Source: Candidatus Wolfebacteria bacterium GW2011_GWB1_47_1 (GTDB lineage Bacteria; Patescibacteriota; Minisyncoccia; UBA6257; UBA9933). Taken from it: DNA of 64,000 nt. Location of the stretch: contig CP011209.1 in NCBI GenBank assembly GCA_001029635.1, positions 551,774 to 615,773 of the forward strand. Reading direction: 5' to 3'. How positions within the stretch are numbered: the first letter of the stretch is position 1; each line of letters starts with the position of its first letter. The translations under genes and the position numbers were made by a program. Shown in pieces: positions 1,814 to 64,000 of the stretch. Below the pieces are notes generated by a model. The model worked only from the letters and a program-made list of their open reading frames with translations, did not search any database and was not told the DNA's origin.

Positions 1814-1824
1814 CGTCGAAACGA

Positions 1825-1854
1825 GGCGCGCATGCCTAATGCGCGCCTTTTTTG
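1825..1854 (+). terminator. rho-independent terminator
   Basis: GGCGCGCATGCCTAATGCGCGCC hairpin followed by TTTTTTG. Confidence 0.7.
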
Positions 1855-1916: not shown

Positions 1917-2756
1917 TTAGCGTAGGTTTTGCTGAAGGAATACTAGGGTCTTTTGCCAAGCATCCTTTGTTTCTTCTGGCGCGTAGCTTTGTCCGGATGG
2001 GTTTGCGAATGCATGACCCACTCCTGGGTAGATCGTGATCGAATTGCTGATGCCAAGTTCGTTGAGTATGGCTCGGAATTCGTTGACCGTCTTGGGTGAG
2101 ATACTTCGATCTTCTCCTGCAAAGATCCCGAGTACTGGCCATTTGATAGCGCGCAACGTTTCGATGTCGGTCACGACGTTGCCGTAATAGATGACGGTAG
2201 CATTGAGTTGCTCACCAGAAAGCGCAAGCTGGAGCGATTGTCCTCCACCAAAGCACCAGCCGAGCGAGGCCAGCTTTGTTGCGCCGTGGGCTCGCAGATA
2301 CGTTGCAGCGGCGCGCATGTTCTCTCGTCCTTTTGCCTGGTCGAATGCACTCGTTTGTTTGCGTGCCTCGTCTTGTGTGGTCGCTATGGTGCCAAAGAGA
2401 TCTACGGCCAGTACATGATACCCCTGTCCAGCAAGTTCTTGTGCGGTCGCGCGCATCGTGTCGTTGAGTCCCCACCATTCATGAATCATAATAATGCCTG
2501 GGTATATCCCGGGGGTTGCGGGGTGTGTATAGAATCCGCGAACTCCAGAGAAATACTCAACTGTTTCTGTTACGATGGGGAGTGCCTGATTGCCATGCAT
2601 CAGTGCTATATTTGCATCGCTTAATGATGTTGCCATAGGGGGTACATCGTGCACGTCTTGTGGGGCTTGTACGTTTCCGCGCCATAGGAGTAGGACAATG
2701 GCGATTACGAGGACGCCAAGGCCGATATGCATTGATAACTTGAAGTAATGCTTCAT
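1917..2756 (-). CDS. dienelactone hydrolase family alpha/beta hydrolase, N-terminal TM anchor
   Basis: 279 aa; HEWWGL, GWCFGG (nucleophile elbow) and GVGHAF motifs typical of the DLH family. Confidence 0.75.
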   Translation of the reverse strand: MKHYFKLSMHIGLGVLVIAIVLLLWRGNVQAPQDVHDVPPMATSLSDANIALMHGNQALPIVTETVEYFSGVRGFYTHPATPGIYPGIIMIHEWWGLNDTMRATAQELAGQGYHVLAVDLFGTIATTQDEARKQTSAFDQAKGRENMRAAATYLRAHGATKLASLGWCFGGGQSLQLALSGEQLNATVIYYGNVVTDIETLRAIKWPVLGIFAGEDRSISPKTVNEFRAILNELGISNSITIYPGVGHAFANPSGQSYAPEETKDAWQKTLVFLQQNLR

Positions 2757-2841
2757 TTTTTTGTTATATGAATAGGATAAAACTATCCGACTGTATTAAT
2801 GATACTCCTGTTGCTGTACATTATTCAACGTATATTGCGAA

Positions 2842-2864
2842 TAAAAAAAGCGCCCGATGGGCGC
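2842..2864 (-). terminator. rho-independent terminator of the transglycosylase gene
   Basis: minus strand reads GGCGCCCATCGGGCGC hairpin then TTTTTTT. Confidence 0.7.
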
Positions 2865-2874
2865 CTTTGGTGTG

Positions 2875-3942
2875 CTAGGTGTGGAGTACTTTCCATACTG
2901 CTTCGAACTCCTTCAGATAGGTTCGCGTTTCCGGCAGGACATGGGCTTCCCATGCGCCTGCGTGCTTGCGAATCGATCGGAGCGCTTTTGATGGGCCACC
3001 GTTGTATGCGGCGGCGAGATATTTGCCCATCGCCTCGGGATGCTTCTTGAGGAACTTCCGATGCGACTTGGGTAGATAGCTCAGGTCCGAGTCGAACAGC
3101 AGGAGAGTTGCCTTGGCGGCATTGATGTGGTTGTCCATACCGTCGCCGAAATTATCGATGAGCTCCGCTTGAGAATATCGGCGGTCTATTGCTGCGTACG
3201 TCCTGGGCATGAACTGGAACTGGCCACGCGCCCCCGCTTTCGAGATCGAATAGCGGTATGCGTTTTCGCGGTTCGTGGCCAGAATGACTAGTACCTCTCC
3301 GACAAGTTGTTCTACCGGGGTGCCGGCGTTGAAACGTGCGGGATCGATGTGTTCGATGATCGCGAGTGTCAGTGCTACGTCCTTGGGGATCGCGGAAGTG
3401 ACCTTCCCGCCGTAGGCGAGCGATCTGATCTTTTTGGCATCCAGATCGTGTTCCGCCTTTTCGAGCTTGTCTTTAAGGTAGATAAGACCTTCTTTCTGCA
3501 ACTTCGGCGAGTCGATACCCTTGGTGTATGGTGTATACGTTACCGCTTTGGTCTTGTTGTCTTGACGGACGACGCGCTTGAGTGCGAGCACCACATATCC
3601 CGAAGGGGACGTGATCTCGTAGTGCGTGTTGACCCCATTGAGCCTTGGGTATGTTACGTGGTAGCCCATAGGCGCTTGGGTGCCATTGGTGAGTGTGATG
3701 ATCTTGATCGCATCGTTATCTTTGCGAATCGCCAACAGAACGTCCTTTCCCGTGACACTTCTCGTCGAGAGAATTTCTCTTGCATCCATTGATCGGTTTT
3801 TCAGATATTGCTTGGCAAAGATGCCGAGAATACCCAAGAGAACGATCGTTGCAAGTACAGATACAGCCCTTCTGTTTCGCATTACATTACCTCCAAAAAA
3901 TTCGTAAAATGATGAACTGGTTATATAATGAACTAAAATCAT
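2875..3942 (-). CDS. membrane-anchored lytic transglycosylase (SLT domain)
   Basis: 355 aa; N-terminal TM; C-terminal GQFQFMPRTY...AAAYNGGP motif set characteristic of SLT/goose-lysozyme-like lytic transglycosylases. Confidence 0.6.
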   Translation of the reverse strand: MILVHYITSSSFYEFFGGNVMRNRRAVSVLATIVLLGILGIFAKQYLKNRSMDAREILSTRSVTGKDVLLAIRKDNDAIKIITLTNGTQAPMGYHVTYPRLNGVNTHYEITSPSGYVVLALKRVVRQDNKTKAVTYTPYTKGIDSPKLQKEGLIYLKDKLEKAEHDLDAKKIRSLAYGGKVTSAIPKDVALTLAIIEHIDPARFNAGTPVEQLVGEVLVILATNRENAYRYSISKAGARGQFQFMPRTYAAIDRRYSQAELIDNFGDGMDNHINAAKATLLLFDSDLSYLPKSHRKFLKKHPEAMGKYLAAAYNGGPSKALRSIRKHAGAWEAHVLPETRTYLKEFEAVWKVLHT

Positions 3943-18309: not shown

Positions 18310-18351
18310 AAAAACGGGACTTGCAGCCTTTTTGATTGTTGAGGGTATTAT

Positions 18352-18386
18352 AAAGACCATACGCATCATGCGTATGGTCTTTATGT
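18352..18386 (-). terminator. long palindromic hairpin terminator downstream of tRNA-Leu (bidirectional)
   Basis: AAAGACCATACGCATCATGCGTATGGTCTTT, 14-bp stem. Confidence 0.65.
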
Positions 18387-24875: not shown

Positions 24876-24910
24876 ACACAAACACCGCCTTGAGGCGGTG
24901 TTTGTGTATA
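24876..24910 (+). terminator. 14-bp hairpin after the tRNA pair (terminator/processing stem)
   Basis: ACACAAACACCGCCTTGAGGCGGTGTTTGTGT; no long U-run. Confidence 0.5.
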
Positions 24911-27150: not shown

Positions 27151-28194
27151 ATGGGATTGTTCAATTATTTTGTAAAGGATATCGGAATCGATCTGGGAAC
27201 TGCCAATTCGCTTGTATATATCAAGGAGCGTGGCATTATCATTAATGAGCCTTCGATCGCGGCGATGAATAACAAGACCGGGCAGGTGCTTGCTATCGGC
27301 GAAGAGGCTAAAAAAATGTTAGGGCGTACGCCCGCGCATATTACCGTCGTAAAGCCGCTCGTCAATGGAGTTATTTCTGACTTTGAAATGGCACAGGAGA
27401 TGTTGCGTTATTTTTTGAAGCGCGTAAACAACAATCGGATGTTCAGCTATCATCGTGCTGTCATCGGCATTCCGCCCAATTTGACCGAGGTGGAACGTAA
27501 GTCTGTTGAGGATGCCGCTATCAATGCGGGCGCGGCAAAGGCATTCCTTGTGGAGGAGCCGATCGCAGCGGCGCTGGGTGCGCGATTGCCGATTCAAGAA
27601 GCCATGGCCACCATGATTGTTGATATTGGAGGAGGTACGACTGACATTGCCATTATTTCGATGGGGAGTAGTGTCATCAGTCGCAGTTTGAAGGTTGCCG
27701 GCGATAAGTTGAACGATGATATTATCAAATTCGTTCGGGAAGAGTTCAAACTTATGATCGGCGAGCCAACCGCAGAAGAACTGAAAAAAACCATTGGCTC
27801 GGCCATTCCAATGGAAGAGCGCATGGAGCTTGCGATCCGCGGTCGTGATATGGGGACGGGATTGCCACGCGAGGTCATCGTAAAAAATACCCAGATCCGC
27901 GCCGCCATTGGTCGTTCATTGCGACAGATTGTCGAATGCGTTAAAGAGACTATTGAAAAGACTCCGCCCGAGCTGGTGGGTGATATCTATGAGCGCGGTA
28001 TCTATTTGTGTGGAGGCGGGAGTCTCTTGCGCGGCATCGATCAGCTCATTGAAAAAGAAGTGACAGTGCCGGTAACGGTTATCGACGACCCACTTACGGC
28101 GGTCGTGAGAGGAACCGGCGTTATCGCCGAGGATATCGATGCGTATGCACAGCTGTTTGTTACGTCGTTGAAGCCATTGGACATCAACATTTAA
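27151..28194 (+). CDS. mreB: rod shape-determining protein MreB
   Basis: GIDLGTANSLVYIKERG..., actin-fold phosphate motifs. Confidence 0.95.
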   Translation: MGLFNYFVKDIGIDLGTANSLVYIKERGIIINEPSIAAMNNKTGQVLAIGEEAKKMLGRTPAHITVVKPLVNGVISDFEMAQEMLRYFLKRVNNNRMFSYHRAVIGIPPNLTEVERKSVEDAAINAGAAKAFLVEEPIAAALGARLPIQEAMATMIVDIGGGTTDIAIISMGSSVISRSLKVAGDKLNDDIIKFVREEFKLMIGEPTAEELKKTIGSAIPMEERMELAIRGRDMGTGLPREVIVKNTQIRAAIGRSLRQIVECVKETIEKTPPELVGDIYERGIYLCGGGSLLRGIDQLIEKEVTVPVTVIDDPLTAVVRGTGVIAEDIDAYAQLFVTSLKPLDINI

Positions 28195-28195
28195 T

Positions 28196-28318
28196 AAAAT
28201 TCATTCTATTGGCCAATTACTTTGTTGCGGGCCCCTGTCGTCTCGGTCGGAGTACTATTCGTACACCTTCCTCGATAACTTTCCCGCGTCGCGTACTTTG
28301 CTCAATAGAATGAATTTT
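28196..28318 (+). ncRNA. copy A of a 3-member conserved structured intergenic element (candidate novel RNA motif)
   Basis: 16-bp outer stem AAAATTCATTCTATTGG/CAATAGAATGAATTTT enclosing the core TTGTTGCGGGCCCC..TCTCGGTCGG-[hairpin]-CCTTCCTCGATAACTTTCCCGCG; paralogous to 32546..32672 and 63373..63498. Confidence 0.55.
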
Positions 28319-28355
28319 AACTCTAAAAATAAGTTTTGTTATGTAGTTAAACGCC

Positions 28356-29691: not shown

Positions 29692-31569
29692 ATGGCTAAA
29701 ATTCTTGGTATAGATTTAGGAACGACAAACTCCGCGATGGCCATCATTGAGGGTGGCGAACCGCGAGTATTGGAAAATCATGAAGGAAATAGAACAACTC
29801 CGTCGATCGTAGCGATCAGTAAGGCGAATGAACGGCTTGTTGGTTTATTGGCGAAGCGTCAAGGTGTTGTTAACCCGAAAAACACCATCTTTTCGGTAAA
29901 GCGTCTCATTGGGCGTAAGTTTACCGATCCGGAAGTGCAGCATGATAAGGCATGGTTGCCGTTTGAGATGCGCGCGTCGGAATCAGGTGGTGTCGAAGTA
30001 CAGATGGGGGATCGCTGGTACAAACCGGAAGAGATTTCCGCAATGATTCTCGCAAAATTAAAGGCTGACGCGGAAGCGAAGGTTGGAGAAACGATTAATG
30101 AAGTGGTCATTACCGTGCCTGCGTATTTTGACGATTCGCAGCGCCAGGCTACTAAAAACGCCGGTGAAATCGCGGGATTTACCGTGAAGCGTATTATTAA
30201 TGAACCGACGGCAGCAGCGCTCGCCTATGGCTTGAACAAGCAGAAAGCAGAAAAGATTGTAGTATATGATTTTGGTGGTGGAACGTTCGATGTGTCCGTG
30301 CTTGAGATCGGCGATGATGTTGTCGAAGTGTTGGCGACCGGCGGTGATACGCATTTGGGTGGCGATGACTTTGATAAGACGATCATCGAATATCTGGTAC
30401 AGGAATACAAAAAGCAGGATGGTATTGATCTTTCCGGAGATGCACTCGCATTGCAGCGCTTGAAGGAGGTTGCCGAGCGTGCAAAACATGAATTATCTAC
30501 CGCGTTCGAGACGGAAATCAATATTCCGTATATCACATCGGATGCATCGGGACCACGGCATTTTCTCATGAAGATGACCCGTGCAAAGCTCGAAGAACTC
30601 GTTGGTCCGCATATCGAGAAGTCTATCTCGATCGTACAAAAGATCGTCAAGGATGCTGGATTGCAGATCGGGGACATTAATGAAGTAGTCCTTGTCGGAG
30701 GGCAGATTCGAATGCCGAAGATCCATGAAGCGGTAAAGAACCTGTTTGGGAAAGAACCTCATAAGGGTATTAATCCGGATGAAGTTGTTGCGATCGGTGC
30801 CGCCGTGCAGGCGGGCATCTTCCAAGGCGATGTTAAGGACGTACTTTTGCTTGACGTCACGCCACTTTCGTTCGGAATCGAAACGATGGGCGGCGTGTTT
30901 ACTCCGTTGATCGAAAAGAACACGACTATCCCGACGCAGAAATCTCAGGTTTTTTCGACCGCTGCGGATAATCAGACTTCCGTTGAAATCCATATCCTGC
31001 AGGGTGAGCGCCCTATGGCATCTGATAACAAGACACTCGGCAAATTTATGCTTGATGGTATCCCGCCGGCACCGCGCGGCATTCCGCAGGTTGAGGTTTC
31101 TCTTGATATTGATGCGAATGGCATCCTGAACGTATCGGCCAAGGATAAGGCGACCGGCAAGGTGCAGTCCGTCCGCATCGAGGCGTCAACACAGCTATCC
31201 AAAGAAGAGATAGAAACGTTAAAGCAGGAGGCGGCCGTGCATGCTGAAGAAGATGCAAAAAAACGTCTTTTGATCGAAGCGCGTAACCATGCCGAACAAC
31301 TTGTTTATACTGCGGAAAAATCCCTCAAGGATGCGGGCGATAAGATCGGTGATGATATCAAAAGGTCAGTACAGGAGGCGATTGATGCGTTAAAGACTGT
31401 TAACAATAGCGATGACGCGGAAGCCATTGCGGCGAAAACTGAAGTGCTTTCGACCGAACTTCAAAAAATAGGTTCTGCGATGTATAATCAAGGAGATGCA
31501 TCATCACAGCCGAACGCGGCTGATGATACTCCTAACGAAGGAGAACCAACCACCAATGAATCCAATTGA
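29692..31569 (+). CDS. dnaK: molecular chaperone DnaK (Hsp70)
   Basis: [34 protein letters not shown] signatures. Confidence 0.98.
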
Positions 31570-32542
31570 TGTAAACAGGAATGTCGATATGATCGGCATA
31601 AAGGGATTGATAAAGATCGGGGCGCTTACATTTGTAGGCGTCCTTTTCGCACTTGGCTTTAGCTGGTTCTTTCGCTCTTTTTTGTTAGGGAGCGAATGGG
31701 GGCAACTCATCTGGAGCATGGCCTGCGCGATCGGCTATTTGGTTGTCTTCACCCTGCAAACATTCTTTATTCGCGCAAACACGCATTTTGCAGTCGCGTT
31801 TCTTTTGCAATGCATTGCCTTACTCGGATTCTTCATTACAATCACTACGCCCGTTATGATACTGTTTGCCGTGGTTTATGCATTACTTCTGAGTGCAAGC
31901 TTTGGCGGAAGGAAGATTTTGGAGAACACGCTTAAAATAGATTTTTGGAACATCAGCAAATTGATCGTACCTAAGGGGATCATCGCGTTGACACTTTTAA
32001 TCAGCGTATTTATTCCATTACATTTACAGGCGAACAAGGATGTGCTTCCGCTTTCAATAGCCACGTTCGACAAAGTCCTTGTCTCGAGTAATGTTTTTGT
32101 TAAGCGATTCTATCAGGATTATGATCCATCGAAGAGTGTCGAAGAAATCGCTCGAACTACGACGGAGCAGCAACTTGCCGCAATCCCACAGGCACAAAAT
32201 CTCAAACCGGTAGAGCGTGAGATTTTGATCAAGCGGGCCATGAACGATTTCTACGAGCAGATCTTCAGCTATACGGGCGTTACGATTAATCCTAAAGACC
32301 CATTTTCCAAAGCGGCCTATGGCATCCTAGAGGAGAAGTTTAACGGATTGAAGGACGAGGCAAAGCTATGGATCTATATCATATTTGGGAGTATCATCTT
32401 TATTTCGATCGCCAGTATCATGCTCCCGATCCGGATACTTGTCGGATTGCTTGCCTTCTTCTTTTATGAAACACTGCTTGCACTTGGGTTCGCGCATGTT
32501 ACGATAGAGAGTAGGCCTAAGGAGACAATTATATTAGACTGA
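31556..32542 (+). CDS. hypothetical polytopic membrane protein (328 aa) inserted between dnaK and dnaJ
   Basis: GAAGGAG SD; ATG 31556 overlaps the dnaK stop by 14 nt; multiple TM helices. Confidence 0.5.
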
Positions 32543-32545
32543 GTC

Positions 32546-32672
32546 AAAAAAACGAATAGGGACGGCGATTTACTGTATTGTGGGGTCCTATCAGCTTGGT
32601 CGGCGTATACGTAATACGACTCCCTCGCTGATTTTCCCACGCCTTGCAACTCATCCGTCCCCATTCGTTTTT
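32546..32672 (+). ncRNA. copy B of the conserved structured intergenic element
   Basis: outer stem AAAAACGAATAGGGACGG/CCGTCCCCATTCGTTTTT (one A:C mismatch); core GTATTGTGGGGTCC..GCTTGGTCGG-[hairpin]-CTCCCTCGCTGATTTTCCCACG. Confidence 0.55.
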
Positions 32673-32691
32673 ATTAGTAACGTATTATATT

Positions 32692-33801
32692 ATGAGTAAC
32701 GATTATTACAAAATTTTGGGCGTTGAAAAGGGCGCTTCCGATGACGATATCAAGAAGGCATATCGAAAACTCGCCCATCAATTTCATCCCGACAAAAAGG
32801 GCGGAGATGAGCAAAAGTTCAAGGAAATCAACGAGGCGTATCAGACCTTATCCAATAAAGATAAGCGTGCGCAGTATGATCGTTTCGGCAAGTCGTTTGA
32901 TGGGGGTGCGGGAGGGTCTGGTGGCTTTGGTGGCTTTAACCAGGGAGGTTTTGGGTTTGATTTTCAGGGTGGTGATTTTGGCGACCTGGGTGATATCTTC
33001 GAGGCTTTTTTTGAAGGCATGGGCGGACAGCAAAAGCGCCGTACGTATGCGCATGGGGCTGACATGGAGATGACGCAGGAGATTACACTTGAAGAGGCAT
33101 ACAAGGGGATCGAAAAAACGATCACTTACGCGCTTAATGTGCAGTGCGCTACTTGTAGCGGCCTTGGACATGATGCAAAGGCAACTTTTTCGCAGTGTAA
33201 GAAGTGTGACGGACGTGGCGAGGTCCGCGAGACACGCAGTACTTTTTTTGGTAATTTTGCCCAGGTGCGAACCTGCGCCGACTGTCATGGTGTTGGACAG
33301 ATACCCGACAAACGCTGTGTGTCCTGTGGCGGCACGGGTGTAACCAAGGGTAAAAAATCGATTACCGTCAAGATATTGCCGGGAGTTGGCGATGGTCAGA
33401 TTATTAAAATGACCGGCGGTGGGGAGGCTGGACAGCGAGGTTCCCAGGAGGGCGATCTTTATTTACATATTCGGGTCAAGCCGCACGCAACCTTTGTGCG
33501 TCAGGATGATCATCTCATCCTTGAGAAAGAAGTTACCCTAGTGGGGCTTCTTGCCTATTTTGCCGATGCCGATGCGCATCCGATATTCGCTCCGACCATT
33601 GCGGGCAAGCAGCAGAATCTTGCCATCCCGCGCGATTTCATGTTCAATAAGCCGCTAAAGATCGCAGGCGAGGGTATGCCGCATTTTAACCGTATGGGGA
33701 GAGGCGATCTGTATGTGCATTTTAAAATCGCCACGCCGCATAAGCTGAGTAAGGAGGCAAAGCGTCTGGTTAAGGAACTTATGCAGGATCTCGAGGCATA
33801 A
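32692..33801 (+). CDS. dnaJ: molecular chaperone DnaJ
   Basis: J-domain YYKILGV...HPDK, G/F-rich region, four CxxCxGxG zinc-finger repeats. Confidence 0.95.
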
Positions 33802-38526: not shown

Positions 38527-38534
38527 ACCTTAAA

Positions 38535-38572
38535 AAGGAGTCCGTCTGGTTGACGAGCTCCTTTTTATTTTT
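38535..38572 (+). terminator. hairpin + T-run terminator
   Basis: GGAGTCCGTCTGGTTGACGAGCTCC then TTTTTATTTTT. Confidence 0.5.
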
Positions 38573-39863: not shown

Positions 39864-41357
39864 ATGACCACCATCATAAAAAAAATAACGGTCGTATTCC
39901 TTGCATTGTTTATGGTTGCCGGAATGGCCGCTCCGTCTGCGACCGCACTTGCGGCGACATTTAACAATGACAGCCGCGATTATGCAACGTTGCAGGTTTC
40001 AAACTACACCCGTAACCCGGGCAGCAATAGTAATTGGTCTAACTCCGTATCCGCAAGCGCAGGCGAAGTCGTCAGCTTCCTGGTGTATTACCACAACACT
40101 GCATCCGACACGGCAAGCAACACCCGTATCCGCGTGCAACTTCCGTCGGGAGCATTTACGAACCGTACGGTTACTGGAGAGGTTTTTTCCTTAACTACTT
40201 CTACCGTAAATGGTTCCGCATCAATCAATCTGTCGTCAAATCAGACGCTGACTTTTATTCCAGGAAGCGTGAGTTGGTATCCGAACCAGTCAACCGTTTC
40301 TCAAACATTGCCGAACGGACAGAACGGCAGTGAAATCGTCTCCTCCAATGGTGTTCTTATTGGAGATATTGCAGGAGGATGGGGTGCGCAAGGATATATT
40401 GTATTTCGCGCGCAGGTGAGTTCCGGTAGTCAGTCGATAGTAGTCAATTCCTCGACTAATGCGCGTAGTCCGTATGTCACCACACGCGCAGCTTCTTCTG
40501 TGTCCCGTTCAAGCGTATTATTGCGTGGGGCAATAAACCCTAACGGGACACTTACTACTGGATGGTTTGAATATGGTGTGACTCCTTCTCTTGGTAGAAC
40601 GACAATCGTTCAGCCTATGGGGCAATCTCAGTACTCGAACGCGTATTCTTCCGTTTTGAGCGGCTTGCAGGCAGGTACGACCTATTATTATCGGGCTGCT
40701 GCTCAGAATTCCTATGGCACGGCGCGCGGGCATATCCTTAGCTTTACGACATCGGGAGGTGTAGTTGCGCAGATTGCTCCGCGCACAATCGTTCAACGTA
40801 CTGCAACCGTTCGTTCGGAAGCGGTCACTATAGGGGATGATGCATTGATCATACTTGATCCATCTATTGATGTCGTTCGGCCTAATGCTGGAGACACGAT
40901 CACCTATACGATCATCTATAAAAACAAAACTAATACGGCATTGCGCGATGCACAATTGAGTATCGTTCTTCCGGAAGATATTGTGTATAGAGAAGCTTCC
41001 GTCGATCCAACCTCGGTTACTGATGGGCAAATCGCATTTAATCTCGGCACTATTGCTGCCCGAGAATCCGGATCCATTGATATTACTTTAATGATAAGCG
41101 AGGCGGTGCGTGCGAATGATTCTTTTTCGATCAATGCATTATTGGATTACGCCAATGGACGTGGCGATATGCAAACGGTAAGCGCCTATCTTGTATTCTT
41201 GGTAAATGATGGAACTGCCGGGTTAGCATCACTTTCGAGCGTTTTCGGGGGGTTGCTTGATAACTGGTTCATTGATCTGGTCCTCGGATTGATCATCGGA
41301 TTTGGTATCTATCATTTCTTCGTTCGACAGAAAGATGAAGTGCTATTGGTAAAATAA
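39864..41357 (+). CDS. secreted cell-surface repeat protein, paralog A (signal peptide, DUF11/CARDB-like N-domain, two ~104-aa repeats, DUF11-like domain, C-terminal TM anchor)
   Basis: MTTIIKKITVVFLALFMVAGMAAPSATALA signal; the ORF-track start 39477 is rejected because paralog alignment fixes ATG 39864; C-terminal WFIDLVLGLIIGFGIYHFFVRQK. Confidence 0.8.
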   Translation: MTTIIKKITVVFLALFMVAGMAAPSATALAATFNNDSRDYATLQVSNYTRNPGSNSNWSNSVSASAGEVVSFLVYYHNTASDTASNTRIRVQLPSGAFTNRTVTGEVFSLTTSTVNGSASINLSSNQTLTFIPGSVSWYPNQSTVSQTLPNGQNGSEIVSSNGVLIGDIAGGWGAQGYIVFRAQVSSGSQSIVVNSSTNARSPYVTTRAASSVSRSSVLLRGAINPNGTLTTGWFEYGVTPSLGRTTIVQPMGQSQYSNAYSSVLSGLQAGTTYYYRAAAQNSYGTARGHILSFTTSGGVVAQIAPRTIVQRTATVRSEAVTIGDDALIILDPSIDVVRPNAGDTITYTIIYKNKTNTALRDAQLSIVLPEDIVYREASVDPTSVTDGQIAFNLGTIAARESGSIDITLMISEAVRANDSFSINALLDYANGRGDMQTVSAYLVFLVNDGTAGLASLSSVFGGLLDNWFIDLVLGLIIGFGIYHFFVRQKDEVLLVK

Positions 41358-41368
41358 TATGTTTCCCA

Positions 41369-41402
41369 TAAAACAGCTCCTCTCGGGTGAGCTGTTTTAG
41401 CT
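41369..41402 (+). terminator. rho-independent terminator
   Basis: AAAACAGCTCCTCTCGGGTGAGCTGTTTTA. Confidence 0.65.
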
Positions 41403-41464
41403 AAAAGGGGGTCGATTATTGTTTTAATAACATCCTCGCAAGCTAATCAATAAAAATCATCATC

Positions 41465-42688
41465 ATGACATTTATCATCAAAAAAATATCCAGCGCATTT
41501 CTTGTTTTACTGGTAATCGTAGGAGTGGTCGCTCCGTCCGCGACCGCACTTGCCGCGACCTTCAACAATGACAGCCGCGATTATGCAACGTTGCAGGTTT
41601 CAAACTACACCCGCAATCCGGGCAGCAGCGCCAATTGGTCCAACTCCGTATCCGCAAACGAAGGCGAAGTAGTCAGCTTCCTCGTGTATTACCACAACAC
41701 CGCATCCGATACGGCAAACAATACCCGCATCCGCGTGAAACTTCCGTCGGGAATGTTTACGAATTCGTCCATCCAGGGAGATGTTTGGGCAAATAACGAA
41801 TCTGCTGTTGCCGGCACTGCATCGGTCAGTCTGTCGTCAAATCAGACACTAACTTTCATCCCGGGAAGTGTTGTATGGTATCCGAACCAGTCAACCGTTT
41901 CGCAGACATTACCAAACGGACAGAATGGCAGTGAAATTGTTTCTTCCAATGGCCTTATCATCGGTGATATCGCTAGTGGATGGGATGCACAGGGATATAT
42001 CGTATTTCGCGCGCAGGTGAGCTCGACTCCTACTGGATCGTTGGCAACCGTTACAACACAGAGTGCAAGTTCGCTTGCACAGCGATCCGCTACCATATCC
42101 GCACTTATTGATGCAAATGGGGCAAACACGTCGACTTGGTTCGAATATGGTACCGCACCATCATTCGGCTCTATAACTGCTGAGCAGACGATTGGATCAA
42201 GTGCTTCCGGTTCTAATATTACCGCATATCTTACTAATCTTTCCCCTAATACTACATATCATTATCGTGCCGTTGCTCGCAATGCCCATGGGATAGCCCA
42301 TGGAGTTACGTTACAATTTTCTACGCTAGTAGCCGGTGCACAGGCGACTGCCGTCACTAATGGAACAAATGATATTACCGGATCATCTGCTACGATAACG
42401 GGGGCTGTTAATCCGAACAATGCAAATACCGCCGTTTGGTTTGAATATGGGACTAGTGCATTGTTCGGTCGTGTTGACGGTAGTCGATCGATCGGCTCTG
42501 GAAGTGCCTCGGTCGAGCTCACTTTTTTGCTTACCGGACTAACTCCGCGAACCTTGTATTATTATAGAGTTGTTGCCCAGAATTCTTACGGAACGACGTA
42601 TGGTTCTACTATATATTTCACAACAAAGGCGGATGGACCTGTTCCTCCTGTTGTGAATGGACCGAGCATTATGCCAAGTTCATACTAA
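41465..42688 (+). CDS. secreted repeat protein, paralog B (same N-domain, three repeats, no C-terminal DUF11/TM anchor)
   Basis: N-terminal ~190 aa almost identical to A/C at DNA level; ends ...KADGPVPPVVNGPSIMPSSY without the anchor module. Confidence 0.75.
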   Translation: MTFIIKKISSAFLVLLVIVGVVAPSATALAATFNNDSRDYATLQVSNYTRNPGSSANWSNSVSANEGEVVSFLVYYHNTASDTANNTRIRVKLPSGMFTNSSIQGDVWANNESAVAGTASVSLSSNQTLTFIPGSVVWYPNQSTVSQTLPNGQNGSEIVSSNGLIIGDIASGWDAQGYIVFRAQVSSTPTGSLATVTTQSASSLAQRSATISALIDANGANTSTWFEYGTAPSFGSITAEQTIGSSASGSNITAYLTNLSPNTTYHYRAVARNAHGIAHGVTLQFSTLVAGAQATAVTNGTNDITGSSATITGAVNPNNANTAVWFEYGTSALFGRVDGSRSIGSGSASVELTFLLTGLTPRTLYYYRVVAQNSYGTTYGSTIYFTTKADGPVPPVVNGPSIMPSSY

Positions 42689-42699
42689 TCAAACGCAAA

Positions 42700-42735
42700 A
42701 AAGAGCATATCAGTGCTCTTTTTTGCGCTTGCGTG
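42700..42735 (+). terminator. rho-independent terminator
   Basis: AAAAAGAGCATATCAGTGCTCTTTTTT. Confidence 0.7.
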
Positions 42736-42772
42736 AAGAGGGGATTTTAGAGATGCGTTTTAGGACACTAAT

Positions 42773-42801
42773 TGACAAAACAGTACGATTTAGTATATAA
42801 T
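42773..42801 (+). promoter_or_regulatory. consensus sigma70 promoter TTGACA-N17-TATAAT with ~100-nt leader
   Basis: TTGACAAAACAGTACGATTTAGTATATAAT. Confidence 0.65.
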
Positions 42802-42899
42802 ACTTATAAGTGATCAATATTCAGATTTTGATCAGGGACGGTAACGATGAATGGATTTAGTTATCCATTTTGAAATAGTAATATTAGTATCATATCCAT

Positions 42900-45332
42900 A
42901 TGACCACCATCATCAAAAAAATAACCATCGCATTCCTTGCCTTACTGGTAATCGTAGGAGTGGTCGCTCCATTTGCTAACGTTTTTGCCGCGACCTTCAA
43001 CAATGACAGCCGCGATTATGCAACGTTGCAGGTTTCAAACTACACCCGCAATCCGGGCAGCAGCGCCAATTGGTCCAACTCCGTATCCGCAAACGAAGGC
43101 GAAGTAGTCAGCTTCCTCGTGTATTACCACAACACCGCATCCGATACGGCAAGCAACACCCGTATCCGCGTGCAACTTCCGTCGGGAGCATTTACCAATG
43201 TGTCCATTCAGGGAGATGTTTGGGCACATAACGGATCTGCTGTTGCCGGCACTGCATCGGTCAGTCTGTCGTCAAATCAGACACTAACTTTCATCCCGGG
43301 AAGTGTTGCATGGTATCCGAACCAGTCAACCGTTTCTCAAACATTGCCGAACGGACAGAACGGCAGTGAAATTGTTTCTTCCAATGGCCTTATCATCGGT
43401 GATATCGCTAGTGGATGGGATGCACAGGGATACATCGTATTCCGTGCGCAGGTGAGCTCGAATACCGTTAATCCGCCGCAACAGAACGGATCAGCTCCGT
43501 TTGTTTCGACTAATACCGCATCAGCTATTCAGCAGGATCGCGCGACTGTTCAAGGAACCGTCAATCCAAATAATGCAAATACGAATGCTTGGTTCGAATA
43601 TGGAACGACGCAGTCTTTTGGAAACACGACCGGATATCAGGTTATCGGCCTAGGCAATTCCAGTACGAATGCCGTGGGGTACTTCTACAATCTGAATCAG
43701 AATACAACCTATTATTATCGTATTGTCGCCCAAAATGCTTATGGGACGACGTATGGAAACATATTAAGCTTCACAACGCAGGGTTCCACGACTGGCACCG
43801 GCAGCGCACCGTATGCCACAACGCATTCGGCGTATTCTGTCGCACAGAATTCCGCGACGTTACAGGGTGCTGCTAATCCGAATGGGCTTGCCACTACGGC
43901 TTGGTTCGAATATGGAACGACGCAGTCTTTTGGAAACACGACCGGATATCAGACTATTGGTTTAGCGAATTCAGCCTCCACTATTTCCGGATATCTTTCG
44001 AATCTGTCTTCCAATACAACGTATTACTATCGCATTGTCGCACAAAATGCCTATGGGACGACGTATGGGAATACATTGAATGTTATGACACAGCAGTCCT
44101 ACGGAGGAGGCAATAATGGCTCTGTTCCTACTGCCTATACTAATACGGTTTCGGCTTCAGGGGTAAACTCAGCAACATTTAGCGGTTCAGTCAATCCAAA
44201 TGGTAACTATACCAATGCATGGTTTGAATATGGTCTAAGCCAGTCATTGGGGTATACGATTGGGTATCAGGCGCTTGGGTCAAGTAGTTACGCTTCTGCT
44301 ATTACGGCGAATGTGTATAATCTTGCACCGAACACAGCCTACTATTATCGAGCCGTTGCGCAAAATTCTTACGGGACAAACTATGGGACCATTCTAACCT
44401 TTACTACAAGCGGTTCTTCGATCAATAATGCAAGCAAGGCTCCTTATGTTACGAGCCGGGCCGTGCAATCTGTTTTTCGTAATTCCGCATTGATCAACGG
44501 TAATGTTAATCCTAATGGATCACTTACTACCGCATGGTTTGAGTGGGGTGTTACTGCTTCGTTGGGTAGCCGGACCATGATCCAGCCTGTCGGTATGGCA
44601 AACTATTCAGATAGTTATTCCGCTGTGTTGAGTGGATTGTTGCCTGGGACCGATTACTATTATCGGGCTGTTGCACAGAATGCCTATGGGACGACGTACG
44701 GAACTATTCTTACATTTACAACCTCGGCGCAAACTATCGTTCCGGTCGTCGTGAATAATAAGACTACCGAGCCGCGCGTGGTCGTCCAACAGATTACGGG
44801 ATCATCTGCGGTTGAACAGACCGTCATTTTAACTCCCTCGATTGACAAGAGCGATCCGCGAGCAGGGGATGCTGTTAAGTATTCTATTCAATATCGCAAT
44901 GAAGGAGCAAGTGCGATCACTGGAGCAACCGTGAAGATTCTTCTTCCTAGTGAGGTGGAATATGACAGCGCTACGATGAAGCCGAGTTTTGTTGAAGATA
45001 ATGAACTCACCTTCGACTTGGGTACAATCAAGGGTCATAGCCAGGGGGTCATCACGATTAAAGCAACTATCGATACTGCTGTCGATGCGGATAGCGCATT
45101 GATGTTCAGTGCGACATTAAACTATACCGATGCAAAGAAGCAGTTCCAATCTACGAGTGCCTATTTGACCGTCATGGTCGAAGTAGGTTCTGCGGGATTA
45201 GCTTCGCTCTTTGGCGTATTCGGTACGTTATTAAATAATTGGTTTGTTGATCTCGTACTCGGTCTCTTGATCGGATTCGGTATTTACCACTTCTTTGTCC
45301 GACAAAAGGAGGAAGAAGCTCTGATCAAATAA
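42900..45332 (+). CDS. secreted cell-surface repeat protein, paralog C (six ~104-aa repeats, DUF11-like domain, C-terminal TM anchor)
   Basis: 810 aa; repeats each contain NPNG..T.AWFEYG...TTYYYR.VAQN.YGTTYG; C-term WFVDLVLGLLIGFGIYHFFVRQKEEEALIK. Confidence 0.85.
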   Translation: MTTIIKKITIAFLALLVIVGVVAPFANVFAATFNNDSRDYATLQVSNYTRNPGSSANWSNSVSANEGEVVSFLVYYHNTASDTASNTRIRVQLPSGAFTNVSIQGDVWAHNGSAVAGTASVSLSSNQTLTFIPGSVAWYPNQSTVSQTLPNGQNGSEIVSSNGLIIGDIASGWDAQGYIVFRAQVSSNTVNPPQQNGSAPFVSTNTASAIQQDRATVQGTVNPNNANTNAWFEYGTTQSFGNTTGYQVIGLGNSSTNAVGYFYNLNQNTTYYYRIVAQNAYGTTYGNILSFTTQGSTTGTGSAPYATTHSAYSVAQNSATLQGAANPNGLATTAWFEYGTTQSFGNTTGYQTIGLANSASTISGYLSNLSSNTTYYYRIVAQNAYGTTYGNTLNVMTQQSYGGGNNGSVPTAYTNTVSASGVNSATFSGSVNPNGNYTNAWFEYGLSQSLGYTIGYQALGSSSYASAITANVYNLAPNTAYYYRAVAQNSYGTNYGTILTFTTSGSSINNASKAPYVTSRAVQSVFRNSALINGNVNPNGSLTTAWFEWGVTASLGSRTMIQPVGMANYSDSYSAVLSGLLPGTDYYYRAVAQNAYGTTYGTILTFTTSAQTIVPVVVNNKTTEPRVVVQQITGSSAVEQTVILTPSIDKSDPRAGDAVKYSIQYRNEGASAITGATVKILLPSEVEYDSATMKPSFVEDNELTFDLGTIKGHSQGVITIKATIDTAVDADSALMFSATLNYTDAKKQFQSTSAYLTVMVEVGSAGLASLFGVFGTLLNNWFVDLVLGLLIGFGIYHFFVRQKEEEALIK
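43589..44212 (+). repeat. two adjacent 312-nt intragenic tandem repeat units (two protein repeats) with long identical stretches
   Basis: TTGGTTCGAATATGGAACGACGCAGTCTTTTGGAAACACGACCGGATATCAG occurs at 43589 and again at 43901. Confidence 0.8.
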
Positions 45333-59049: not shown

Positions 59050-59696
59050 CAAAGAAAGATTATTTGCTTGGCGTTGTGGCAGGATTACTTATCGGATTGC
59101 TCGCTATGCCTGCCCTGTCTGCCGGGCTGACCGTATCGCTGTATAATTCCATTCGTATATTCATTATCCCTTTCTTTTTACTGGGTACTCCGTTGGGATT
59201 ATACGTGGCAGCTTTGCTTGGTAAGAAGATCCCTGCCGTATGGCAGATCGGCAAGTTTGGTGTTATTGGTATATTAAACACACTTGTCGATCTTGGTGTC
59301 CTTGCGGCAATCGCTTCCTTTGTCAATTCGCGCTATGGGGTTGAGTCGGATTATATCATTGGAATGATCGGCACGTGGACGGTTACGATCTATACTATGT
59401 ATAAGGCAATCTCCTTTGTGGTTGCGAATATCAATAGCTATCTATGGAACAAGTATTGGACGTTTGCCGTCGGTGTCGCACAGAAGACAAAGGCTGAATA
59501 TCTTCAGTTCTTCATTATTAGTATCGTTGGGTTCGTTATCAATGTTGCCGTATCTTCCGTTGCATTTGTATTTGCCTTGGGCTTAGAAGGTTTGACTTCT
59601 GGGCAAGCGGGATCGATTGGCGCATTAACAGGAACAGTACTAGGCCTCCTATGGAATTTCGTGGGATATAAATTTATCGTATTTAAAAATAAATAA
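59046..59696 (+). CDS. GtrA-like membrane protein with N-terminal extension
   Basis: KFGVIGILNTLVDLGVL ... NSYLWNKYWTF pattern of the GtrA family; 4-nt overlap with the upstream gene. Confidence 0.55.
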   Translation: MTKKDYLLGVVAGLLIGLLAMPALSAGLTVSLYNSIRIFIIPFFLLGTPLGLYVAALLGKKIPAVWQIGKFGVIGILNTLVDLGVLAAIASFVNSRYGVESDYIIGMIGTWTVTIYTMYKAISFVVANINSYLWNKYWTFAVGVAQKTKAEYLQFFIISIVGFVINVAVSSVAFVFALGLEGLTSGQAGSIGALTGTVLGLLWNFVGYKFIVFKNK

Positions 59697-59699
59697 CGA

Positions 59700-59735
59700 A
59701 AAAAATTCATGCGTTGCATGAATTTTTTTATTTTT
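59700..59735 (+). terminator. rho-independent terminator
   Basis: AAAAAAATTCATGCGTTGCATGAATTTTTTT. Confidence 0.75.
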
Positions 59736-60010
59736 TTAAAAAAAATAATTAAAAATAAAATATAAAAATAATTTTTTGAAAAATTTGAGTTATCCACATT
59801 GTAAAAATATTTTTTTTATTACAAAATTAAAGTATAAGAAAAATAAATAAACAAAAGTAAAAAATATTTTTATCTTTTATTTATTTTTTTTATTGCTTGG
59901 TCATCGATTTAAAATATATTTGATTGGTCGACAAATTTATTTTGAATATAAAAACAAATAATATTTTTCATTTATGCATCTCGATGCATTCATGAAATTA
60001 CAACATCACT
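59736..60010. promoter_or_regulatory. ~275-bp extremely AT-rich tract with one perfect DnaA box (TTATCCACA at ~59789) upstream of the KA-repeat micro-protein gene
   Basis: base composition far below window average, A/T homopolymer runs, consensus DnaA box. Confidence 0.5.
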
Positions 60011-63372: not shown

Positions 63373-63498
63373 AATAATCTTTCAATTTGGCGAATTGCTT
63401 TGTTGCGGGCCCCGATTGTCTCGGTCGTCGTACGCGTAAGTACGACTTCCTCGACAATCTTCCCGCACCTCGCACCTCATCCAAATTGAAAGATTATT
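63373..63498 (+). ncRNA. copy C of the conserved structured intergenic element
   Basis: perfect 18-bp outer stem AATAATCTTTCAATTTGG/CCAAATTGAAAGATTATT; core TTGTTGCGGGCCCCGATTGTCTCGGTCG-[TCGTAC..GTACGA]-CTTCCTCGACAATCTTCCCGCAC. Confidence 0.55.
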
Positions 63499-63514
63499 TT
63501 CATTCGATACTATT

Positions 63515-63964
63515 ATGACAATCAATAAAGATCTTTATTTTGTTGCGGTAAAAGTATTTTTACAGGATCAAGAGGGGAGGTTATTAATTACCAAAGATCG
63601 CTTCGATGCTTGGGATATACCCGGCGGGAGGTTGCGGGAAATGGATTTTGTAACGCCCCTTGAAGCTGTTATTGAGCGAAAGATGCTTGAGGAGCTTGGT
63701 GAATCGGTTCGATATGATCTAGGTGATCCTGTGATTTTTATGCGCCATGAGCGGGATGAATTACTACCTTCCGGAGAGCGGGAAAAGCGAAGGATCTTCG
63801 CTGTTGGGTATCGTGCAACGTATCGTGGCGGGGAGATCGTTTTGGGAGGAAATCATGAGCAATACGAATGGGTATCTCTGGACACATTTGTTCCCGAACG
63901 TTATTTTACCGGAGGCTGGTTGCGGGGAATAAAGGAATTTATTGAGAAGGTTAAAATTAGTTAA
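63515..63964 (+). CDS. Nudix-fold protein with degenerate Nudix box
   Basis: PGGRLREMDFVTPLEAVIERKMLEELGE approximates GX5EX7REUXEEXGU. Confidence 0.45.
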   Translation: MTINKDLYFVAVKVFLQDQEGRLLITKDRFDAWDIPGGRLREMDFVTPLEAVIERKMLEELGESVRYDLGDPVIFMRHERDELLPSGEREKRRIFAVGYRATYRGGEIVLGGNHEQYEWVSLDTFVPERYFTGGWLRGIKEFIEKVKIS

Positions 63965-63967
63965 CAT

Positions 63968-64000
63968 GATGATCGCCGAAAGGCGATCATTATGTTAATG
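63968..64000 (+). terminator. hairpin terminator
   Basis: ATGATCGCCGAAAGGCGATCAT. Confidence 0.55.

Follow-up and report, generated by a model that had tools for sequence, protein, structure and literature searches.

Three long hairpins in a 64,000-nt stretch of the genome of Candidatus Wolfebacteria bacterium GW2011_GWB1_47_1 (here called the window) turned out to be members of a real family of palindromic mobile elements, of which the literature that we searched holds no description in Patescibacteria. The finding is solid and had previously gone unnoticed; the kind of element is familiar and its function is putative. The family moves rarely and is gained and lost at orthologous sites, and purifying selection has preserved its ~95-nt centre long after insertion.

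Three copies of a long hairpin in the window

The first-pass annotation, made from the letters alone, had described three intergenic loci, after mreB, before dnaJ and after secA, that share a core within unrelated outer stems. On inspection of the sequence, all three loci were present where it had placed them, and the flanking genes, mreB/mreC, dnaJ, and secA with a NUDIX gene, agreed with its account (Table 1). Each copy is ~125 nt long and combines a ~95-nt core common to all three with 16–18-bp outer stems of unrelated sequence; a MAFFT alignment bore this organization out, with a mean column identity of 76% in the core. Copy A begins right after the mreB stop codon (28192–28194) and ends 36 nt before mreC, copy B lies between the ORF of a 348-aa membrane protein (stop at 32542) and dnaJ (ATG at 32692), and copy C is followed after 16 nt by the NUDIX gene (ATG at 63515). 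The gene order around the first two copies is mreB–copy A–mreC–grpE–dnaK–membrane protein–copy B–dnaJ.

Table 1 Positions of the hairpin elements, their parts and the adjoining genes in the window
Feature	Position	Strand	Remarks
mreB	27151–28194	+	Pfam MreB_Mbl; stop codon abuts copy A
Copy A, complete hairpin element	28195–28319	+	Inverted repeat and covariance-model match
Copy A, outer arms	28195–28216/28298–28319		22 nt, 91% complementary (inverted-repeat search)
Copy A, covariance-model match	28201–28314		109.9 and 107.7 bits
Copy B, complete hairpin element	32548–32672	+	Inverted repeat and covariance-model match
Copy B, outer arms	32548–32565/32655–32672		18 nt, 94% complementary (inverted-repeat search)
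Copy B, covariance-model match	32554–32667		102.4 and 101.6 bits
dnaJ	32692–33801	+	Pfam DnaJ, DnaJ_C, DnaJ_CXXCXGXG; start 19 nt past copy B
secA	60817–63369	+	Pfam SecA domains; stop 3 nt 5′ of copy C
Copy C, complete hairpin element	63373–63498	+	Inverted repeat and covariance-model match
Copy C, outer stem 5′ arm AATAATCTTTCAATTTGG	63373–63390	+	Pairs with 63481–63498; locus-specific sequence; 18 nt, 100% complementary (inverted-repeat search)
Copy C, outer stem 3′ arm CCAAATTGAAAGATTATT	63481–63498	+	Pairs with 63373–63390
Copy C, covariance-model match	63379–63493		115.3 and 116.2 bits
Copy C, conserved helix GCGGG	63405–63409	+	Pairs with CCCGC 63462–63466; GTGGG/CCCAC in copy B
Copy C, variable inner stem GATTGTC	63414–63420	+	Pairs with GACAATC 63453–63459
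Copy C, conserved block TC-GG-TC	63421–63426	+	Opposite TT-CC-TC 63447–63452
Copy C, apical hairpin GTCGTAC-GCGTAA-GTACGAC	63427–63446	+	Helix 6
Conserved-loop sequences of the element			CGAGGAAG/CGACCGAG

Each of the three copies folds into a single long hairpin, at z-scores between −6 and −10 relative to dinucleotide-shuffled sequences, and covariance models built from related copies scored them at 102–116 bits (E of 1e-23 to 1e-26). The same models found no fourth copy in the 64-kb window, also when run with the filters off. The helix changes quoted in the annotation (GCGGG/CCCGC against GTGGG/CCCAC, GATTGTC/GACAATC against ATCAGC/GCTGAT, and three different apical hairpins) are all there. 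Its two "invariant single-stranded" blocks, TCGGTCG and CTTCCTCG, exist as well, but they are not invariant, copy B having TTGGTCG and CTCCCTCG, and they are single-stranded only in part, as their GG and CC pair and leave two 2×2 internal loops.

Other gene ends in the window carry plain, perfect hairpins of 15–18 bp with loops of 1–6 nt, four of which start at a stop codon or within 6 nt of one, and these are built like the outer stems of the element. In the window, A-runs and T-runs flank the outer stems of the copies, several members of the family having no T-run, and a scan with a consensus terminator, which cannot score loops of ~90 nt, found nothing.

A covarying family in the sampled Patescibacteria

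An exact-pattern scan over one genome per species gave 14 stretches, of which 12 were genuine, all in MAGs named as CPR (three Wolfebacteria, Kaiserbacteria, Lloydbacteria, Paceibacterota and one Saccharibacteria). The other two, L013 (Aulosira) and L014 (Poriferisocius), match the pattern only, the rest of the element being missing by inspection; chance matches of this kind are to be expected, given the pattern's information content, and both were left outside the model searches. Metagenomes yielded 32 further stretches to the pattern scan. The covariance-model search that the annotation had proposed, run over the genome and metagenome stretches, returned 45 matches and extended the family to 35 distinct copies, adding divergent second and third copies overlooked by the pattern. 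All distinct copies lie on contigs of the Patescibacteria/CPR type except the weakest match, L028, whose membership is doubtful (34.8 bits, a GC content of 0.64 and a position beside a glutamine synthetase-like ORF) and which was excluded from the counts; L044, a partial match of 15 bits, was rejected. As far as sampled, the family is restricted to Patescibacteria/CPR. An origin from phages or plasmids was rejected, with no exact pattern match on viral contigs and no blastn match in phage or plasmid records.

Rfam 15, searched with the whole window at gathering thresholds, matched only four tRNAs. Permissive scans (E ≤ 10) gave one spurious plant microRNA match for copy A (15 bits, the cut-off being 99) and nothing for the expanded variant L041; the Rfam comparison, likewise suggested in the annotation, thus matched no family at either level. 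ARAGORN, applied to eight loci, detected no tRNA or tmRNA adjoining an element.

The element measures ~115–135 bp, or about 190 bp with an expansion, and has the architecture of a rod-like imperfect hairpin. The outermost part is a locus-specific stem of 13–25 bp, inside which follow a short helix with a frequent U·G pair (on the − strand of the window), a UGC/GCA helix, a GYGGG/CCCRC helix and a variable stem of 6–7 bp. Innermost come a strictly conserved GG/CC pairing (helix 5, paired in 100% of cells) between two 2×2 loops, which read as tandem G·A/A·G and A·A/A·G on the opposite strand, and then the apical hairpin with its GUAY/RUAC stem. In the metagenomic copies L041 and L043, a two-hairpin segment of ~75 nt is inserted at one fixed internal loop.

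Over the 35 distinct sequences, in an alignment fitted to the model, 91.9% of the pair cells held standard pairs, as against 32–44% when the 3′ partners were slid by 1–3 columns; double changes were found in 37 of 39 helix pairs, and the observed values were reached by none of 500 shuffles. An independent MAFFT/RNAalifold analysis of 15 copies recovered the same fold with compensatory changes in 26 of the 39 pairs. Examples are column pair 29/90 in the GCGGG/CCCGC helix (CG in 12 and UA in 3 sequences of the 15-copy alignment), the variable inner stem (helix 4), changed on both sides in all six pairs, and column pair 72/81 of the apical hairpin (CG in 20, UA in 15). The proposal of a conserved, covarying structured family without an Rfam match therefore holds in both alignments.

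A small ORF inside the element (ATG in GGATGA; 30 aa in L002 and about 33 aa in copy C when translated by hand) was considered and rejected as coding because copy A has no ATG, loops of differing length put the frame out of register and the helices covary, the covariation itself arguing against coding. Intergenic copies do not preserve a reading frame, copy C having a TGA stop in the frame used in trxB.

Mobility of the element

The view that the loci are an RNA motif rather than a transposon proved half right, as the family also behaves as mobile DNA in its presence and absence at sites, its shared stems, an insertion at rarA and an in-frame copy. At the mreB site, orthologues of copy A are present in L005, L006 and L056 and absent in L049; copy B has orthologues in L049 and L056. 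The MreB of L049 is 93% identical to that of the window and 96–97% identical to those of L005/L006, which in turn share 94–95% with the window. The mreB–mreC gap of L049 is only 31 nt long and holds a seeming remnant of the 3′ arm of copy A; this site, the only orthologous one without the element, resembles an imprecise deletion. No copy was found in 142 kb from relatives with 70–82% MreB identity.

In one metagenome, the same outer stem, TAGGACCTACGCAAATAG, was found at four sites (L038, L037, L015/L016 and L041), and the outer stem of L043 is a close variant of it. These copies are nearly identical over the whole hairpin and follow unrelated genes (a pilin gene, rarA and gyrB, plus the fourth site), and among the loci collected the shared end motif occurred solely within the elements themselves. 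Direct repeats of 5–6 bp, TTTATT and TTTCA, flank two of the four young insertions. Terminal inverted repeats are present in every copy and are shared only within this lineage, being 21–42% identical elsewhere. The RarA protein of L015 ends in ...KKYFS, with the TAG stop supplied by the end of the element; removal of the element and of one TTTCA gives ...KYFSQ and then a stop codon. This reconstruction of the frame before insertion is consistent, since RarA homologues run past the L015 stop point, extending 1–5 residues beyond the conserved KKY(F/L) (for example, ...KKYLQ and ...KKYLP). The element thus occasionally moves whole, with a putative target duplication of 5–6 bp. Insertion into the loop of a pre-existing terminator was rejected, as the young copies bring their own outer stem and lie beside plain terminators, not inside them, and the element-free site of L049 has no hairpin.

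A thioredoxin-reductase-type gene of L019 and L030 holds the element in frame, as an open insertion of 37 aa immediately ahead of the motif GVWAAGD; PDB homologues have 6 residues here, compared with 46 in the L019/L030-type enzyme. The outer stems of these two copies differ and both still pair, which indicates that nucleic-acid pairing has been maintained at a cost to the peptide. A profile built from both encoded peptides matched no proteins, revealing no other in-frame host gene, and widespread in-frame translation was rejected.

The family is small and non-coding, with three copies in the window and two to three strict matches in other MAGs, as in miniature elements of the MITE type, and an in-frame insertion with the frame kept open, as in Rickettsia palindromic elements (RPE), is provided by L019/L030. 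Copy number per genome is low (2–3 strict matches). Neither a transposase nor a parent insertion sequence was found among the neighbours of the copies, which are annotated in part. Overall, the element is rarely mobile and is tolerated almost only at gene boundaries.

Selection on the core

At the four-fold degenerate sites of mreB, the window shares only 44% identity with L005 or L049, a value near saturation. Against this background, orthologous copies A of the window and L005/L006 agree at 75–79% of outer-stem, 87% of paired-core and 78–80% of unpaired-core positions. Between the paralogs within the window the corresponding values are 25–38%, 67–78% and 54–67%, and between copy C and the Saccharibacteria copy L004 they are 42%, 78% and 69%, so that L004 is as near to copy C as are its paralogs in the window. 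Outer stems are 21–42% identical between paralogs, versus 67–78% for the paired core columns. The functional constraint claimed in the annotation is upheld in that the ~95-nt core of orthologues (~80–87% identity against 44% at the four-fold sites) is under purifying selection, and the core has a role that depends on its sequence.

The copies could instead be ordinary intrinsic terminators or neutral palindromes in which quasipalindrome correction by template switching mimics covariation; templated correction of this kind can indeed imitate compensatory change. The window's numerous plain, perfect hairpins at the ends of genes and the perfect, locus-specific outer stems fit such an origin, but correction would erase mismatches, and the same asymmetric, mismatched loops recur in 35 copies across CPR classes. 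As these mismatched loops are conserved, neither a recent origin nor templated palindrome correction is sufficient. Moreover, unpaired core columns are 54–80% identical compared with 44% at neutral sites, and a common core of ~95 nt cannot arise separately at each terminator. This reading is disfavoured and highly improbable.

Position and orientation relative to genes

At ~20 of 23 independent sites, an upstream gene on the same strand ends 1–11 nt before the element, and this adjacency to a stop codon persists where the downstream gene is convergent. The upstream genes, assigned by Pfam or by eye, are mreB, ftsA, ftsZ, secA, secG, gyrB, rplJ and rplL, and further ssb, rpsR, efp, pilC, pilin genes, rarA, a gene for an ABC-2 permease and nusG (the last by eye). 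What the sites have in common is the upstream gene's stop codon and not the gene that lies downstream, and neighbours that span division, secretion, ribosome, replication, pili and chaperones do not fit a riboswitch or a gene-specific leader.

The element sits in the orientation described in the annotation, on the + strand downstream of a + gene, as a strong bias but not as a rule, three of the ~23 sites being inverted: L002, between a dksA-like gene and comM; L020, between mraZ and rsmH and overlapping the rsmH start codon; and the site inside the thioredoxin-reductase-type gene. In L018, L033, L037 and L038, which hold paired copies, the copies always point the same way. The position supports the suggested co-transcription with the upstream gene. 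The + strand of the window is G-rich throughout and probably the leading strand, and the directions of replication and transcription are not separable inside the window. An orientation set by replication was rejected, the L002 copy being inverted relative to the local GC skew, too.

The folded strand

The + orientation given in the annotation corresponds to the transcribed strand, judging from the position after same-strand genes. Counts of wobble pairs do not point to the + strand as the one that folds. In 13 of 15 copies the better fold belongs to the strand complementary to the mRNA, and on that strand G·U pairs outnumber A·C pairs by 67 to 24 over all distinct copies, by 45 to 14 over 24 independent loci and, over the same loci without the conserved pair, by 30 to 13 (p = 0.014). 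The excess is carried largely by those few copies in which the complementary strand is the sense strand (9 G·U to 0 A·C), and without the three sense-oriented sites the bias of 21 to 13 is not significant. A purely sense-RNA function would not predict the better fold and the G·U excess of the complementary strand.

Promoters resembling those of sigma-70 face all three window copies on the − strand. Family-wide, such an antisense promoter was found in 5 of 35 copies, with about 2.4 expected, and an independent antisense RNA gene was rejected in view of this count and of the orthologues L005 and L006, which have no such promoter. No conserved promoter or IHF site exists across the family.

These strand data bear on the idea that the element is a single-stranded-DNA site on the strand complementary to the mRNA, acting as a recombination, transposition or priming signal comparable to the bottom strands of integron attC sites or the ends of IS200/IS605, the RNA folding being a by-product. 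Wobble-compatible pairs and folding energy favour the non-coding strand, the orientation is strongly polar relative to the genes, the + strand of the window being G-rich and probably leading, and pairing is kept within a coding sequence while the encoded peptide is altered. However, for genes co-oriented with replication the fork exposes the coding-sense strand, which is the one that folds less well, and the L002 copy runs counter to gene direction as well as to local GC skew. HUH single-strand transposases make no target duplications, and among the neighbours of the copies, which are partly annotated, we noticed no gene for a recombinase or transposase. The wobble bias, moreover, loses significance (21 versus 13) once the three sense-oriented sites are left out. 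We consider a single-stranded-DNA site improbable.

Proposed function

With a probability of roughly 0.55, we interpret the element as a palindromic repeat of the ERIC/RPE/MITE kind that is co-transcribed and acts as a 3′-end or intercistronic hairpin, its loops binding a putative factor. It would land, or survive, mostly 1–11 nt past a stop codon and in one orientation, a placement from which it follows that it would be transcribed as the 3′ end or the intercistronic spacer of the upstream mRNA. The transcribed element would then fold as a rod-like hairpin and work like the plain terminator-type hairpins of 15–18 bp. By analogy, it may serve as a barrier to 3′-end exonucleases, a partial terminator or a processing site for a double-strand RNase; roles as 3′-end or intercistronic hairpins are documented for ERIC, Correia and REP sequences (PMC10969869). 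A terminator or stabiliser role is one that we only infer, since the U-run is not universal and the terminator scan finds nothing. The invariant internal loops could be a docking site for a host RNA-binding protein or for a mobilising enzyme.

Against this interpretation stand the outer stems, the would-be terminal repeats, which differ completely between copies within one genome, a divergence that a sequence-specific transposase would not tolerate. Low copy number and the 142 kb of relatives without a copy are unlike typical high-copy repeats, and target duplications are discernible at only two of the four young insertions.

Alternatively, the element may be a dedicated structured ncRNA, for example, a protein-binding small RNA, whose mobility is incidental. 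Such an RNA would have no promoter of its own and would ride on well-expressed mRNAs, the copies in a genome being redundant genes, and a double-strand-specific RNase would excise it through the outer stem, whatever the sequence of that stem, in the manner of rRNA precursors. The core is kept from Parcubacteria to Saccharibacteria at a plateau of ~65–80% that is regardless of phylogenetic distance, with neutral sites saturated; the outer stems retain pairing and not sequence, the upstream genes are mostly housekeeping genes that are expected to be well expressed, and loss of one copy is tolerated. The optional ~75-nt expansion at a fixed internal loop (L041, L043) is of a kind seen in structured RNAs, and the invariant loops are purine-rich motifs of the tandem G·A type on one strand. 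That purine-rich, better-folding strand, however, lies antisense to the mRNA that carries the element at ~20 of 23 sites, while antisense promoters adjoin all three window copies but only 5 of 35 in the family. Related genomes that lack the element over 142 kb would be odd for an essential RNA, and the in-frame copy inside a coding sequence and the evidence for target duplication likewise speak against a dedicated RNA. We regard this alternative as possible, though on balance unlikely.

A broader and more doubtful proposal is that the ~95-nt rod is a new, CPR-specific class of functional nucleic-acid module that spread in a structure-directed manner without conserved ends and has been under selection since before the split of Parcubacteria and Saccharibacteria, whether as a protein-binding or catalytic RNA or as a hairpin in the template-strand DNA. 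Its internal loops are symmetric and purine-rich on one strand (tandem G·A, A·A/A·G and GAAA/GGGG). If such a module exists, it would act on expression of core genes (mreB, ftsAZ, secA, ribosomal operons) in bacteria that have very few known regulators.

The CPR/Patescibacteria make up a large, mostly uncultured share of bacterial diversity and have tiny genomes; to our knowledge, descriptions of regulatory RNAs or mobile repeats from them are almost lacking. The family provides a marker of CPR genome dynamics, with gain, loss and one in-frame insertion, and it is a source of annotation errors, as in L056, where the gene caller ran mreC across the element. Should the partner of the palindromic repeat be a host factor at mRNA 3′ ends, it would offer an experimental handle on gene expression in CPR bacteria.

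Comparison with known systems

Integron attC sites are, like the element, imperfect hairpins directly after an ORF in a fixed orientation, with the mRNA-complementary strand better structured. They have conserved RYYYAAC/GTTRRRY ends (R″/R′ boxes), a variable centre and a cassette array beside an integrase gene. In the element, conservation is reversed, the neighbours are essential housekeeping genes and no integrase was seen.

REP/BIME sequences share with it the nature of extragenic palindromes at gene 3′ ends, where REPs stabilise the upstream mRNA. A REP at most ~15 nt from the stop codon can reportedly lower translation of the upstream gene (a finding attributed to Liang, Rudd and Deutscher, 2015), and this placement parallels the start of the element 1–11 nt past stop codons. 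REPs are 20–40 bp long with a conserved GTAG head, are mobilised by RAYT and make no target duplication, whereas the element is one long hairpin with a conserved centre; the alignments contain no GTAG head and no gene was flanked by inverted copies, as a REP or REPIN would require.

Correia elements and other MITEs resemble it as small, non-coding inverted-repeat hairpins with a short target duplication, which in the element is putative. Correia elements are co-transcribed with neighbouring genes, and RNase III cuts their hairpins at the inverted repeats (PMC10969869). In contrast, the terminal inverted repeats of MITEs are conserved and match a parent insertion sequence, while those of the element vary and no parent was found, and, unlike Correia elements, the family has no conserved promoter or IHF site.

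The closest analogues appear to be ERIC and the Rickettsia palindromic elements. Longer ERIC variants that arose from insertions at fixed internal sites are known and parallel the expansion in L041/L043. RPEs are likewise hairpin repeats of ~100–150 bp in a reduced genome, and they are found both in intergenic regions and in frame inside protein genes, where they add a peptide segment (PMC10969869), as the thioredoxin-reductase copies in L019/L030 do; dozens of genes carry RPEs in frame, compared with one such site for the element. ERIC is an imperfect palindrome of ~127 bp in transcribed intergenic regions and at gene 3′ ends, with conserved sequence, copies retained at orthologous sites, a copy number that varies among lineages and intragenic exceptions, in all of which the element resembles it, and its effect on the upstream mRNA is set by orientation and RNase cleavage (PMC10969869). 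ERIC differs in its hosts, Gammaproteobacteria instead of CPR bacteria, and the element has no demonstrated sequence relation to it, is far lower in copy number (about 2–3) and has locus-specific hairpin ends with only the centre conserved. A conserved centre with free ends, maintained across classes, is rare for a palindromic repeat and points to a putative partner that would recognise a defined set of internal loops.

Element copies within and beside genes

In two of the genome and metagenome stretches used for comparison (L019 and L030), the element lies in frame in a thioredoxin-reductase/AhpF-type gene, to which it contributes 37 residues immediately upstream of the GVWAAGD motif, and the hairpin closes at its outer end through base pairs between the flanking codons for Q-T-P and G-V-W. 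The public mreC call of L056, a close relative of the window in the mreB-dnaJ region, starts 8 nt past the mreB stop and reads through the element (2495-3331); at 278 aa, versus 224-228 aa in relatives, it is likely an annotation artefact due to the repeat. In the inverted copy between mraZ and rsmH (L020), the rsmH start codon appears to lie inside an outer-stem arm, in which case the hairpin would occlude the translation start of rsmH.

The copies of L041 and L043 carry a nested ~75-nt segment (ACTACATGGGCTGTACACCTTTTGG...CAAAAGGTCTTGCGGAATGGGTCCCTCCCCATTCCTC), which occupies the identical internal loop in both and forms two additional hairpins. The segment is an optional domain of the structure or, alternatively, a further small element that has inserted into this one.

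Between dnaK and dnaJ, a 348-aa ORF (31496-32542), conserved in position in L056 and in another close relative, L049, had no Pfam match; judging by its hydrophobic stretches, it may encode a membrane protein. The end of dnaK overlaps with the start listed for this ORF, and the true start therefore probably lies further downstream.

Sequence context in the window

The GC skew of the + strand was positive in all 4-kb bins except 40001-44000 (-0.02), including 1-8 kb, where the - strand holds most long ORFs; thus, the window probably belongs to a single replichore with + as the leading strand. We also noticed an extremely A+T-rich stretch (59690-59980), packed with overlapping inverted repeats, that begins where the ORF with its stop at 59696 ends; model matches there have a GC of 0.18-0.23. 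Because the skew does not change sign in the window, this stretch is probably not a replication origin.

On the - strand, a sigma-70-like promoter match faces each window copy (A, B and C); neither the orthologous copies nor the element family as a whole conserve this feature. Seven plain, almost perfectly palindromic hairpins (stems of 15-23 bp, loops of 1-6 nt) start 0-6 nt from a stop codon in four cases and lie downstream of tRNA genes in two. The outer stems of copies A, B and C are similar to these hairpins, which look like the standard bidirectional terminators of the genome.

Positions of promoter-like sites, plain hairpins and element copies
Feature	Position	Strand	Remark
Promoter match ATAACA-17-TAAAAT	window 28314-28342	-	facing copy A
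Promoter match TTGTAA-16-TATAAT	window 32684-32711	-	facing copy B
Promoter match TTGTCA-17-AATAAT	window 63493-63521	-	facing copy C
Plain hairpin	window 1819-1853
Plain hairpin	window 18350-18384
Plain hairpin	window 24876-24907
Plain hairpin	window 38531-38567
Plain hairpin	window 42690-42731
Plain hairpin	window 59690-59738
Plain hairpin	window 63961-63998		overlapping NUDIX gene end
Element copy	L019:2657-2772		in frame
Element copy	L030:1079-1192		in frame
Element copy	L020:331-448		inverted
Element copy	L041:3411-3608		nested segment
Element copy	L043:6673-6860		nested segment
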